Notes: a model not told the origin generated them from the letters alone. Positions 58,260-60,960 are shown, counted from the stretch's first letter. The stretch is DNA of 64,000 nucleotides from Longimicrobiales bacterium (GCA_965219445.1 CBDCNQ010000004.1:608001-672000), one strand, 5' to 3'. Program-made: numbers and translations.

Positions 58260-59443
58260 TCATGCCTTCGGCCTTCCCACTCCTTGATTCCCTACTTCCT
58301 TTTTTCCCCCGCCTGTCGCTACCGGAGCTGTTCCCGACCCCCCCACTGGACTGAAGGATCTTTGTCGGATCAGCATCGGCACCTGTGTGATGAAGTGAGC
58401 CGTTCGCAAGACACATTCCCACAGCTGAAACGGCCACCTAGGCAGTTCGTTGAACGGCCCCCCGACCCGTGCGGTCGCCTGGATCGGATTAGGCCAACGG
58501 AGGCGAAGCGCTCTCAGCAGATGGGCGGGGTGCCGGAAGGAGTACGCCATCGACGGACTATCCAAGATATAATGCTACTTTGTCGACCACTGGCTGAGCA
58601 CCGAGGGAAGGAGCCATCGGGGCACGTGTCTGTCCCTCTCCTCCGCTGGAATGCCGTCCAAACGGGCACCGAGAAGCTGGTGCGCCAGACACACGGTGGA
58701 TGCCACCCAACCCGCCCGCCGCCGATCTCCCTGCAGTAGATACCTCCAGTCAAAGTCCACGCGCAGTGATTCCAGCACGACGGCGACGTCGCATAACCAC
58801 AGGGCACGGTGCAAGCCGTGGCACAACATGTGGATGCACATGTACCGGAGATGATCCTCGGGCCCCAGTATCCGCACGTCGATGTCACCCAGCGGTACGA
58901 GCTGGGAACGCCCGTAGACATCGTCCAGCGAAGGGCGGTGGAGCTGCGCCAGACCCTTGTGCAAATCGACTGCGACCGGCTCGGCCGTCGGAGCGGCAAG
59001 CGCAGCCACCGCGGCCGTATGCTGTTCCGGCCGAACACAGAGGTCGATGTCTCCATGGGGTCGCAGCCCACGTTCCGGATAAAGGCGAGCGACTGCCCAG
59101 CCCTTGACCAGCAGCGGCTCCACACCCGCCGACCGAAGCCGCGTGATCGCCTGGACGATCTGGTGCTCCGCTCGGGCATTCTGAAGAGTATAGTGGCGGT
59201 ACGCCTGCCGAAGTTCGTGGGCAGCGGCCGACGTGCGTAGCTCGGACGATCGCACCCGCCACCATCCCAGGCTTGCCGCTCCCGTGCCGAGCAGCAGCGG
59301 TGTGACCTCATTGAGGGCGGCGGGCGAGAGAGACTGGGGTGGGGGGGGGGAGCACGCCAGGCCTGGTTGAGGACTGAGGCTATCAGCTTACCGCGTCGTC
59401 GGGGGTCGGTGTCAGTGCGCGGATCGGGAGGCGACGATCTCAA
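58260..59443 (-). pseudogene. Nucleotidyltransferase family protein (NTP_transf_5-like), interrupted by a frameshift near the G10 run (59341-59350) and an in-frame TAG (58575-58577)
   Basis: LLVKGWAVA..YP..GLRPHGDIDL.V, VDLH, HxxxHG...WLCD. The N-terminus (TTG 59443) is in another frame, and the C-terminus continues in frame past the TAG to 58260. Restored length is ~394 aa. Confidence 0.8.
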
Positions 59444-59467
59444 TACACCTATTTCACCACCCCAAGC

Positions 59468-60001
59468 TCAACAACCACATTGTTGTCTCGCCTGACCGGC
59501 AGGCAAACACGCACCGTTGCAGCATTCTCTGTTGCAATTGGTGCCGGTCGTGCATGGGTTGCAATTCGGAACGCCGCTACAATTCGTAACGCACGAGCCT
59601 TGTGCCGCCGCAAGTGGCGCCACGACCGACTCGATCACCGGCAGGAGGAGCGAGATCCCCGCTGCGCGTCCCAGGGTTCGTAGCATTTTCCGCCGCGAGT
59701 ATTGGGCGCTATCTGCCGGCAGTGTCACCGGGTCACTCAGCAAGTGTGCCCGGCTCAAGCGGTCCAGCGCCATCCACACGACCGCCTCGTCTGGCGGGGT
59801 TGCTGAATTCTCCCCCAAGAGCGCAGCCACCTCGGCCACGCTCGTTTGTCCATCGCAGCGCCGCCAGACCAGAGCGGCCGTGCGATTCAGGCAACGGGCC
59901 TTGTGGCGCTCCAGGTCGTAGACCAGGGTTTCGTCCTGAAGCTCCTCGACAATAAGCTTGTCTTGCCTCGCCCGGGGCATTACCGCTGTTGTCGTTTCCA
60001 T
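59468..60001 (-). CDS. PqqD/RRE-domain protein fused to a twin-arginine-like signal and a Cys-rich peptide
   Basis: Residues ~1-90: ETLVYDL.RHKA.CLN.TAALVW..CDG..SV....VWMAL..L....LL (PqqD pattern). Then SRRKMLR, hydrophobic AAGISLLLPVIESVVAP, AAAQG, and a 42-aa tail with 10 Cys. Confidence 0.85.
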   Translation of the reverse strand: METTTAVMPRARQDKLIVEELQDETLVYDLERHKARCLNRTAALVWRRCDGQTSVAEVAALLGENSATPPDEAVVWMALDRLSRAHLLSDPVTLPADSAQYSRRKMLRTLGRAAGISLLLPVIESVVAPLAAAQGSCVTNCSGVPNCNPCTTGTNCNRECCNGACLPAGQARQQCGC

Positions 60002-60051
60002 AGGTATCTCATTCCAAGTCGATGCGCGTGTGAACACTACAAACGTTCACC

Positions 60052-60089
60052 ATTCATGCATGGCACACAAGATTCATGCGTGGCACACA
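60052..60089. promoter_or_regulatory. 18-bp direct repeat (period 20), candidate operator upstream of the PqqD-fusion gene
   Basis: ATTCATGCATGGCACACA and ATTCATGCGTGGCACACA; adjacent GTGAAC-N9-GTTCAC palindrome at 60030-60050. Confidence 0.45.
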
Positions 60090-60135
60090 TGCCAAAAGTA
60101 GTCCCGAGCCAGCCTTTTCAGGAACCTCGGCCCGC

Positions 60136-60960
60136 CTATTCCGCTAACCGGTCCAGAATTGCTTCGGCGACTTCTTCGGCTTCACCACGGGCCCCCTTTA
60201 GCAGCATCGGCTCGGCCGTGGCGGAACGCAGCGTCGCGAGGGCCCGCTCCGGATCACGTCTGGCAGAGACGGTGTGGGCAAAAAGTTCCAACACCGCCCG
60301 CCCAGGCGAAAGCGTGCGCGGTCGCCAGCGAACACCGGGCCGGTAACTGGTCACGACGACCAAGCCCAACGGAAGCGGTCGGACACCGGTTGTACCGCCC
60401 AAATCTTCCGGGAGGATCTTCTTCGCGGGTCTACCCCCGTCCTGCCGCATCGCCAAAGGCCTCGGATAGGGATGCACCCGACCCCGCTCATCCAAAACGG
60501 CATACTCATCGGAATAATACGTCGCACCGGCCCTTAACAGGGCCCTGACCAGGGTTGACTTGCCGCTCATACTACTCCCCGGGATGACGATTGCCCTGCC
60601 ACGCCAGCCCACGACGCAGGCATGGACAAACACCCTTCGGCGGGCATAGTCTGCGACGTATAGCTGCATGTCCCTTTCGAGGGCTTCAAGTACCGGGTCC
60701 GTGTCCTTCGATCGTGCCAGCCGCACCGTGTCCCCATACAAAATATTGAAGCGGCGAACGTTCGAGCCGACCTTGGTTCCGCTTACGATCAGCGAATACA
60801 GACGTCCCACGCGGGGCCCGCGAGCCGGCTTGGCACCCGGTGGAAGCACGGATGCAATCCGATCCATGATCTCCGGGCTACTCGCCCGGATCCCAATGCG
60901 TAGCCCATAGGAGACGAACGAGATCCCTGCCGCCCACCCGAGGCGGTCGATTTTCTCCAT
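60136..60960 (-). CDS. HPr kinase/phosphorylase-related P-loop kinase
   Basis: VFVHACVV.W.GRAIVIPGSSMSGKSTLV.AL...G..YYSDEYAVLD...HPYPRPL: the His, Walker A and SDE acidic motifs of HprK-like kinases. Confidence 0.85.
   Translation of the reverse strand: MEKIDRLGWAAGISFVSYGLRIGIRASSPEIMDRIASVLPPGAKPARGPRVGRLYSLIVSGTKVGSNVRRFNILYGDTVRLARSKDTDPVLEALERDMQLYVADYARRRVFVHACVVGWRGRAIVIPGSSMSGKSTLVRALLRAGATYYSDEYAVLDERGRVHPYPRPLAMRQDGGRPAKKILPEDLGGTTGVRPLPLGLVVVTSYRPGVRWRPRTLSPGRAVLELFAHTVSARRDPERALATLRSATAEPMLLKGARGEAEEVAEAILDRLAE

Follow-up and report, generated by a model that had tools for sequence, protein, structure and literature searches.

What function do three accessory genes serve that stand between rpoC and rpsL in a Longimicrobiales bacterium? 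The genes lie in a stretch of 64,000 nucleotides (GCA_965219445.1, CBDCNQ010000004.1:608001-672000), here called the window, which is part of contig C4 of a 4.56-Mb Gemmatimonadota genome in 5 contigs. The minus-strand order is rpoC (ending at 61395), a repeat and hairpin region, the three accessory genes, rpsL (starting at 58052), rpsG, fusA and tuf. Exactly three genes, all on the minus strand, separate rpoC from rpsL, and the original prediction, made from the sequence of the window, was right about their coordinates and identity (matches to TIGR04352, PF05402 and PF14907). They encode an HprK-like kinase, a fusion protein and a nucleotidyltransferase.

The reading we prefer, and consider somewhat probable, is that this cassette is a peptide-maturation module without a cyclase, whose precursor carries its own PqqD-type recognition element (RRE) for ribosomally synthesised, post-translationally modified peptides (RiPPs). 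It would be likely to resemble the LPP systems of Bacillota, and its fusion protein would act as a self-recruiting precursor of a phosphorylated, exported mini-peptide. The features of the cassette are as follows.

60136-60960, minus strand: HprK/P-fold P-loop kinase, 274 aa (open reading frame (ORF), TIGR04352 match and structure model)
60002-60135, minus strand: kinase-fusion intergenic region (alignment A4, 10 loci)
59468-60001, minus strand: fusion protein, 177 aa, with PqqD/RRE domain, internal twin-arginine signal and 43-aa ten-Cys tail (stop codon 59468-59470)
59783-59932, minus strand: PqqD (RRE) domain core, residues 24-73 (PF05402)
59600-59701, minus strand: twin-arginine-type signal, residues 101-134 (alignment A3)
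59471-59599, minus strand: hypervariable tail, residues 135-177 (10 Cys)
58260-59443, minus strand: PF14907 (NTP_transf_5) nucleotidyltransferase, a pseudogene in this strain (PF14907, 99.8 bits)
59341-59350, minus strand: C10 homopolymer (G10 on the plus strand), frameshift site of the nucleotidyltransferase (three-frame translation)
58575-58577, minus strand: in-frame TAG in the nucleotidyltransferase (relatives have Glu, Asp or Gly there)

Domain, signal and tail of the fusion protein

The fusion protein matches PqqD PF05402 with 32.9 bits (cutoff 23.4) over residues 24-73 and is the sole above-cutoff PqqD match in the genome. The match recurs in 115 of 115 aligned family members (alignment A3), and in all 115 the RRE is fused to the precursor. 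That the RRE would carry its own candidate substrate had been predicted, and the PqqD protein does have a hypervariable Cys-rich tail of its own. Searching the PDB with the fusion profile returned PqqD itself alone (3g2b, E 0.019; 5sxy, E 0.025). The AlphaFold (AF2) model of the protein, although of low confidence, shows at residues 16-81 the RRE order beta-beta-beta-alpha-alpha-alpha; a structure search with this model, built from 23 close sequences, was dropped because the model was too poor. As the start of the gene we favour the ATG at 60001 over the GTG at 60037 of the ORF list, because a Shine-Dalgarno box of the GGAGTGAGG type and the ATG behind it are conserved across 10 aligned loci.

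Residues 101-134 of the fusion protein in the window read Y-S-R-R-K-M-L-R-T-L ... LLLPVIESVVAPLAAAQ, with an AxA-type site followed by G135-S136-C137. The consensus of this segment in the family is S/T-R-R-[EDQ]-[LVM]-[LVMI]-[RK]-[KR]-L-G ... L-P-x-V-x-S-I-V-A-P-x-A-A-x-A-x-S/T. Five residues are invariant in the 115-sequence alignment (D29, G51, L87, R103 and R104), the R103-R104 pair thus being present in all 115, and other columns come close: S/T102 in 110, P121 in 106, P129 in 112, A134 in 90 and C137 in 75, with R or K at position 108 in 99 and A-x-A at 132-134. Two hydroxyl positions stand out, namely position 125 (S in 101 and T in 10, together 111 of 115) and position 136 (S/T in 107 of 115; 76 S, 31 T). 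Among 147 representatives, 116 have S/T at +2 after the parsed AxA site. Judged by this conservation, what joins the PqqD domain to the tail is more than a linker: it is a signal of twin-arginine type that includes an AxA site.

Several features of substrates of the twin-arginine translocation (Tat) pathway are present: the S/T-R-R-x-hydrophobic-hydrophobic-K/R motif, a moderately hydrophobic stretch, the AxA site and Tat machinery in the genome (TatC PF00902, 207.6 bits, C4:591952-592584). The N-terminal position of the signal is lacking, as the motif begins at about residue 101, behind the PqqD domain. The Pfam model TAT_signal PF10518 matches 7 of the 115 relatives (best E 7.6e-4), and the signal region of NosZ aligned to positions 99-139 of the fusion profile without significance (E 1.3).

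The tail of the protein (residues 135-177) reads GSCVTNCSGVPNCNPCTTGTNCNRECCNGACLPAGQARQQCGC and holds 10 Cys. There are 678 close homologues, the best 120 of which are 68-91% identical and about 176 aa long; in the close homologues residues 1-134 are nearly unchanged while the last 38-48 residues vary. Their tails fall into two frameworks, with 10 Cys in 65 and 8 Cys in 47, and their net charge is mostly positive. In the family at large, tails range from 7 to 188 residues (median 46). Parsing succeeded for 147 of 150 representatives, giving an even, non-zero Cys count in 130, an odd count in 7 and none in 10. On these counts, the mostly even numbers are the signature of disulfides paired outside the cytoplasm. 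Some tails are rich in Lys, Gly, Ser and Pro in place of Cys, and tails mostly end in Cys or Gly-Cys. Weak Pfam matches of some tails to conotoxins and knottins were discarded, as they reflect Cys spacing only. A profile search of 1.84 billion cluster representatives returned 6920 clusters at E<=1e-3, 4411 at E<=1e-10 and 555 at E<=1e-30; the nearest are mostly from Acidobacteriota, according to an Atlas lead.

The way these genes evolve also resembles that of precursor genes. A locus holds one to three copies of the fusion gene: L012 has three in tandem and L011 two, and in L013 the whole triad occurs twice. Nonsynonymous (dN) and synonymous (dS) divergence, estimated by the Nei-Gojobori method, amounts to dN 0.04-0.14 and dS 0.16-0.90 (0.16-0.36 in the subgroup of the window) for the N-terminal part, against dN 0.14-0.91 and dS 0.22-3.0 for the tails, so that tail dN is 3-6 times that of the N-terminal part. 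In the tandem copies of L012 the dN/dS ratio omega is 0.16-0.30 for the N-terminal part and 0.51-0.76 for the tail. The two copies of L011 have identical N-terminal parts and tails that differ with dN 0.34 and dS 0.27. These sequence patterns agree with 'leader' parts that are homogenised and an attached cargo that is swapped or evolves fast.

Partner enzymes and conservation of the set

The best NCBIfam match of the kinase is TIGR04352 (HprK-related kinase A; E 5e-14), at 52.1 bits against a cutoff of 200; the kinase of a related locus, L010, also stays below that cutoff (59.5 bits, E 2.7e-16). The motif FVHAxVVGWRGRAIVIPGSSMSGKSTL of the window has its counterpart in 23 relatives (alignment A2), which share FVHAGVVGWxGxAIVIPGxSxSGKSTLxxALxxxGAxYYSDEYAVLD with H113, G128, G133 and K134 invariant. 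A sequence search of the PDB gave nothing significant (best E 0.55). The AF2 model of the kinase has a mean predicted local distance difference test score (pLDDT) of 89.7 and a predicted template modelling score (pTM) of 0.86, and Foldseek places it with the Lactobacillus casei HprK/P structures 1kkl and 1jb1 (TMt 0.54-0.60) and with ATP-dependent phosphoenolpyruvate carboxykinases (E 2.8e-5). HprK/P and these carboxykinases share one common P-loop fold.

A predicted complex of kinase and fusion protein scores 0.78, whereas the best of three controls scores 0.29. This mark is reached by 116 of 157 solved complexes and by 2 of 215 mismatched pairs, counts that hold only roughly here since the prediction was built on our own alignments A2 and A3. 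Runs agree in at least 73% of contacts, with a partner pLDDT of at least 74. In the confident interface, residues 100, 103-104, 113 and 218-245 of the kinase meet residues 17-39 (the PqqD sheet) and 124-135 of the fusion protein; the latter stretch is the conserved segment ESVVAPLAA.QG, which ends one residue before S136. The model supports a putative docking of the kinase on the PqqD domain and on the stretch that leads up to the tail.

The third gene matches PF14907 with 99.8 bits from a probable TTG start at 59443. The original prediction implied that it is broken, and it is indeed a pseudogene in this strain: the frame shifts in the C10 run at 59341-59350 (poly-Pro codons), and a TAG stands in frame at 58575-58577. 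An ORF at 58260-58565 continues its C-terminal part. Intact relatives measure 365-388 aa (L010-L013 and L016), and by arithmetic from the three-frame translation 1 or 4 added bases in the C10 run would regain the frame. Contigs of the runs X1 and X6, which come from one study and two samples, equal the window at both lesions and keep the TAG, where X1 is perhaps the sample from which the window was assembled and X6 alone is semi-independent. Contigs of X2 and X3 (a second study, one sample) have C for A at 58577 on the plus strand, which turns TAG into GAG at full depth (5/5 and 7.72/7.72). The homopolymer counts 10 bases in X1 and X6, 14 in X2 (+4) and 15 in X3 (+5), and the same runs have 0 differences over 59440-60606, an interval that takes in the fusion gene and the greater part of the kinase gene. 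The lesions are real and recent, and judged from these contigs the nucleotidyltransferase is probably intact in a near-identical sister population.

The C/G run may differ in length because strains vary, because assemblies are noisy or because it is a hypermutable switch that turns the nucleotidyltransferase on and off. A conserved phase-variable run was ruled out, as among the compared loci the window alone has a run of at least 8 at that spot.

A scan of species-representative genomes, in which genes were located by tblastn, yielded 16 close loci, 15 from labelled Gemmatimonadota lineages and 1 from Acidobacteriota. The kinase shares the locus with the fusion gene in 14 of these 16 and is directly adjacent in 13; the nucleotidyltransferase is present in 13 of 16. 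In seven loci (L011, L012, L013, L014, L015, L017 and L022) rpoC and/or rpsL flank the set, which in L022 is inverted relative to rpsL. Among 16 distant loci from the same phylum, 13 have the kinase and 14 a PF14907 gene, and L030 adjoins rpsL. At the level of genomes, the fusion profile finds 31 of 401 sampled phylum genomes at E<=1e-5 (24 of 147 genera) and the kinase profile 29 phylum genomes at E<=1e-10. A near full-length kinase occurs in 18 other Gemmatimonadota genomes, of which 17 also give a long fusion match; the exception, G044, is an assembly of 480 contigs. Taken by its distribution in these genomes, the set is patchy yet tightly linked, which is more than chance juxtaposition.

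Around 21 loci we ran Pfam on 136 of 195 neighbouring ORFs, a survey that left out the ORFs assigned by tblastn, some of the farthest ORFs and all of L018, L025 and L030. At E<=1e-5 these 136 ORFs contain no Asn_synthase, Transglut_core3, Radical_SAM, S24/S26 peptidase or MsbA-type exporter; one unrelated ABC_tran/UPF0014 pair lies in L033. The absence of a lasso cyclase, a B2 peptidase and a radical SAM gene, stated in the original prediction, is thereby borne out, and the triad is conserved without any of the three. Occasional neighbours are glycosyltransferases (L021, L031, L036 and L038) and MauE-family membrane proteins (PF07291), the latter directly adjoining the fusion gene in L029 (1837-2958, 56.6 bits) and L034 (8560-9483, 60.1 bits). 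The MauE neighbours fit an extracytoplasmic disulfide handling of the tail.

Some loci contain further genes. A 4.4-kb insert splits kinase and fusion gene in L015, and the insert (1676-5803) has ORFs with prepilin-type N-terminal 'FTLIELL' motifs. In L016 an AbiEii/AbiEi toxin-antitoxin pair (6947-8647; PF08843, 129 bits) separates the fusion gene from the nucleotidyltransferase gene as an insertion, and around it lie an N-terminal nucleotidyltransferase fragment (6698-6964) and a full copy (8916-10052). A 383-aa CxxCxxCC protein stands between fusion gene and nucleotidyltransferase in L010 (6672-7823), L011, L012 and L013 and is absent from the window; it scores 22 bits with PF03692 (cutoff 23) and is FliB-like at 21.6 bits. 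The anti-phage defence models of PADLOC gave no match at E<=0.01 for the kinase, the fusion protein, the intact nucleotidyltransferase of L010 or the CxxCxxCC protein.

Known systems and competing readings

The kinase and a PqqD protein also pair up in the HPr-rel-A cassette, which consists of a TIGR04352 kinase and a TIGR04353 PqqD-family protein. The original prediction had drawn analogies with this cassette and with the paeninodin lasso peptides. Both were reasonable, but the cassette falls short of the HPr-rel-A models: the fusion protein has no TIGR04353 match at E<=1, and with a kinase at 52-60 bits against the 200-bit cutoff the cassette is, on these scores, a sister group of HPr-rel-A and not a member. 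Another parallel lies in Tat substrates with signal-binding chaperones of the TorD/DmsD/NapD type, whose binding domain retains the twin-arginine signal until cytoplasmic maturation is done. Those substrates carry cofactor enzymes, whereas here the RRE would sit on the same chain, N-terminal of the signal, with a small peptide as cargo.

The LPP clusters of Bacillota are closer still (Popov et al., Nat Commun 2026;17:6633, PMC13381572; what follows on LPPs reflects the sections of that article drawn on here). They contain the genes LppA/K/B/S/D/N. LppA, with 1-3 genes per cluster, is a precursor of 35-200 aa with a conserved N-terminal leader and a highly variable C-terminus; LppK is an HprK-like kinase, LppB a discrete RRE, LppS a SipW-like peptidase, LppD an MsbA-like exporter and LppN an uncharacterised NTP transferase. 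Ser3 of the core, just past the cleavage site, receives 1-4 phosphates from LppK, which does not phosphorylate an S3T variant; an enzyme of the signal peptidase I type strips the leader; and deletion of LppN had no visible effect in the host used. The archaeal-type (SipW-like) signal peptidase I was the discovery feature of the family, which is called restricted to Bacillota, and the terms 'twin-arginine', 'Gemmatimonad' and 'Acidobacteri' do not occur in the paper.

Common to both systems are the lack of a cyclase, the HprK-like kinase, an RRE, an NTP transferase (of PF14907 type and a pseudogene here), a precursor with conserved N-terminal and variable C-terminal part, and 1-3 precursor genes. 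The phospho-acceptor Ser of the LPPs lies 2-3 residues past a site of signal peptidase type, and its equivalent in the cassette is S/T136 (107 of 115). The differences are equally clear. In place of a discrete LppB, the cassette has an RRE fused in cis to the precursor in all 115 members. The LPP leader motif YxxPxVLxHQxIxFETxxS is replaced by the twin-arginine-type signal S/T-R-R ... LPxVxSIVAPxAAxA, and Y-x-x-P does not occur in the 177-aa fusion sequence. With three genes only between rpoC and rpsL the cassette has neither LppS nor LppD, and TIGR02228 (archaeal-type signal peptidase I) has no match in the genome, which is 91.8% complete, so that genome-wide absences are not proof. Finally, its tails are mostly even-Cys knots and its host belongs to Gemmatimonadota.

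Lasso peptides of the paeninodin/pseudomycoidin type share the HPr-kinase homologue, a B1 PqqD-type RRE and a nucleotidyltransferase, according to the passages used here of a review (PMC8498205). There the kinase acts on the linear precursor and the nucleotidyltransferase decorates the phosphate; in pseudomycoidin it adds hexoses onto phospho-Ser. The cassette differs in having no macrolactam cyclase and no B2 peptidase, and whereas the acceptor in those peptides is the C-terminal Ser, its own tails end mostly in Cys or Gly-Cys. A lasso reading of this genome was rejected: both full-length Asn_synthase homologues pass the model of true asparagine synthase, TIGR01536 (472.7 and 483.4 bits; cutoff 267.1) and remain under the lasso cyclase cutoff (237.3 and 225.5 against 525). 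A third, weak Asn_synthase match (23 bits) lies at the start of contig C1, and matches to the B2 peptidase family PF13471 are marginal and away from the cassette, the best having 26.1 bits in a 517-aa ORF.

From the existence and co-occurrence of the genes and motifs, which sequence and comparison establish, we infer every later step of the following mechanism and all of its chemistry. While still in the cytoplasm, the fusion protein would be bound by the kinase at residues 124-135 and at the beta-sheet of its PqqD domain, present in cis, and one of its conserved hydroxyls would be phosphorylated. As judged by analogy from Ser3 in the core of LppA, the likeliest acceptor is S136, two residues past the AxA site, with S125 as the alternative; the likeliest target is on this analogy one conserved Ser/Thr right after AxA, not the Ser/Thr of the tail generally. 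Where intact, the nucleotidyltransferase would add a sugar or nucleotide to the phosphate; since its gene is broken in this strain, at most phosphorylation would remain. The twin-arginine signal would then take the tail through Tat while the PqqD domain stays inside, the general (housekeeping) signal peptidase I would cut after AxA, and, outside the cytoplasm, five disulfides would form in the freed peptide, which would measure about 43 aa. A role in competition or at the surface would suit the hypervariability, the tandem copies and the mostly cationic charge of the tails.

Several observations weigh against this mechanism. The AF2 model of the fusion protein, made from 23 close sequences, is poor (pLDDT 52.4, pTM 0.28). 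PF10518 does not match the fusion protein of the window itself, and our searches returned no precedent for a Tat signal behind a folded domain of about 100 residues. Neither the P-loop nor S136 is among the confident contacts of the complex model. Position 136 is Thr in 31 of 115 sequences, whereas the S3T variant was not phosphorylated by LppK (PMC13381572, sections as above). Disulfides are not universal, as 10 of 147 tails are Cys-free. As the cluster has no dedicated peptidase or exporter, export and cleavage would have to rest on housekeeping systems. Finally, the nucleotidyltransferase is broken in this strain and truncated also in L020 and L035; together with the LppN deletion this suggests that its step may be dispensable or absent here.

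A bolder form of the preferred reading, which we put forward as doubtful, is that the fusions make up a very large, multi-phylum class of 'self-guided' secreted mini-proteins. The cis RRE would both recruit the kinase (and the nucleotidyl- or glycosyltransferase) and hold its own twin-arginine signal, so that a cystine-knot cargo could not leave via Tat until its first mature residues bear a phospho-linked group. If true, this would be a cis-acting quality control of peptide export, and there would be thousands of natural disulfide-rich peptides with a modified N-terminus.

Among the rival explanations, the one that survives best, though we regard it as unlikely, takes the fusion protein for a stable bitopic membrane protein with an uncleaved signal-anchor. 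With its PqqD-like winged helix inside and its disulfide-knot ectodomain outside, it would be no peptide precursor but a sensor, receptor or regulator whose cytoplasmic domain is phosphorylated by the kinase, as HPr is by HprK/P. The positive cluster (RR, R/K) ahead of the hydrophobic stretch would indeed give an N-in topology, no dedicated peptidase is present, HprK/P itself has a small folded protein as its substrate, with the 1kkl complex among the fold matches, and our own complex model seats the kinase on the folded PqqD sheet. Nonetheless, hypervariable ectodomains of 7 to 188 residues are rare in sensors, and some tails are nearly absent or low-complexity runs of Lys, Gly and Ser. Tandem copies with swapped tails, the conserved AxA-x-S/T site past the hydrophobic stretch and the kinship of the cassette with RiPP systems likewise weigh against this rival.

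We also think it improbable that the cassette of this genome is a decaying remnant that yields no finished product now that the nucleotidyltransferase is dead, a view compatible with our reading at the level of the family. It draws on two independent lesions, both confirmed in the X1 and X6 contigs, on the GAG and longer run of X2 and X3 beside an identical fusion gene and most of the kinase gene (0 other letters, 59440-60606), and on the patchiness of the family in the phylum (31 of 401 genomes). The confirmation is tempered by X1 perhaps being the source sample of the window, which leaves X6 alone as semi-independent. Moreover, the lesions are very recent while the kinase and fusion genes are intact and unchanged, versions without the nucleotidyltransferase exist elsewhere (L020, L035), and the LPP core product is independent of LppN as described in the sections used of PMC13381572.

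It is very improbable that the three genes serve to tailor a lasso peptide, or some other RiPP, whose precursor and cyclase lie elsewhere in the genome: HprK-like kinases, B1-type RREs and PF14907 enzymes do tailor paeninodin-type lasso clusters (PMC8498205, passages as above), but no lasso cyclase was found, both full Asn_synthase homologues are true AsnB, no B2 peptidase is convincing, the sole above-cutoff PqqD match of the genome is here, and the 136 neighbouring ORFs in 21 related loci lack cyclase and B2 (genome 91.8% complete).

The preferred reading of a self-recruiting precursor thus combines familiar enzymes with a precursor design that appears undescribed: a cis RRE, an internal twin-arginine signal, disulfide-rich hypervariable cargo and no dedicated peptidase or exporter. 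Full-text searches, with subscription journals and the supplements of PMC13381572 outside their scope, returned no paper that deals with HprK-related kinase A or with a fusion of RRE, Tat signal and precursor.

Flanking DNA and wider meaning

Two further features lie on either side of the cassette.

61172-61389, no strand assigned: two tandem 72-nt repeats and a hairpin, directly after the rpoC stop
58149-58177, minus strand: sigma-70-like promoter match upstream of rpsL (consensus match only)

The tandem palindromes on the rpoC side, originally described as resembling repetitive extragenic palindromic (REP) elements, are real as local structures. The 72-nt copies (61172-61243 and 61282-61353) are 86% alike, and a hairpin with 31-nt arms (61299-61329 and 61359-61389) follows the rpoC stop. 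A dispersed REP family was ruled out, as merely a core of 24-42 nt (TCCGCGGCGAAGCCGTGGAGCGA-like) recurs, at 5 further sites in the 4.56-Mb genome. The region could be a terminator or a small repeat family. On the other side, the separate rpsL promoter that had been predicted has its counterpart in TTGACA-17-TAAATT at 58177-58149, which agrees with the sigma-70 consensus in 10 of 12 positions and is a consensus match only.

In the kinase-fusion intergenic region, which is conserved, the sequence blocks TTGTGC ... TAGTGT are a possible internal promoter, and a hairpin-like site lies at 60091-60075. A 20-nt tandem duplication (TGTGTGCCA[CT]GCATGAAT) at 60040-60095 is unique to the window among the 10 aligned loci. 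Elsewhere in the window, the rplD (L4) ORF at 51302-52432 (minus strand, 376 aa) has a C-terminal extension of about 170 residues with Lys/Ala repeats (KAKAAPKAK...). A polysaccharide-type block at 27489-32769 (minus strand) encodes an NDP-sugar dehydrogenase, a WecA/MraY-like transferase fused to a sugar-transferase domain, and an AsnB-type amidotransferase whose top match is the XrtA/PEP-CTERM amidotransferase model, below cutoff.

If the preferred reading is true, the chemistry of kinase, RRE and nucleotidyltransferase reaches far beyond lasso peptides and the LPPs of Bacillota, to which its demonstration has so far been confined, to a family of 555 clusters at E<=1e-30 or 4411 at E<=1e-10 that ranges over Gemmatimonadota and, by the Atlas lead, Acidobacteriota. 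The final product is undefined even in the LPP system, and the cassette offers a directly testable substrate for this enzyme set. The state of the nucleotidyltransferase provides a natural comparison pair at the level of strains, with TAG and C10 here and GAG and a longer run in the sister population. Overall, the precursor would be of a new design, with recognition domain, export signal and hypervariable cargo on one chain, and the family would point to a large natural library of exported disulfide-rich peptides.

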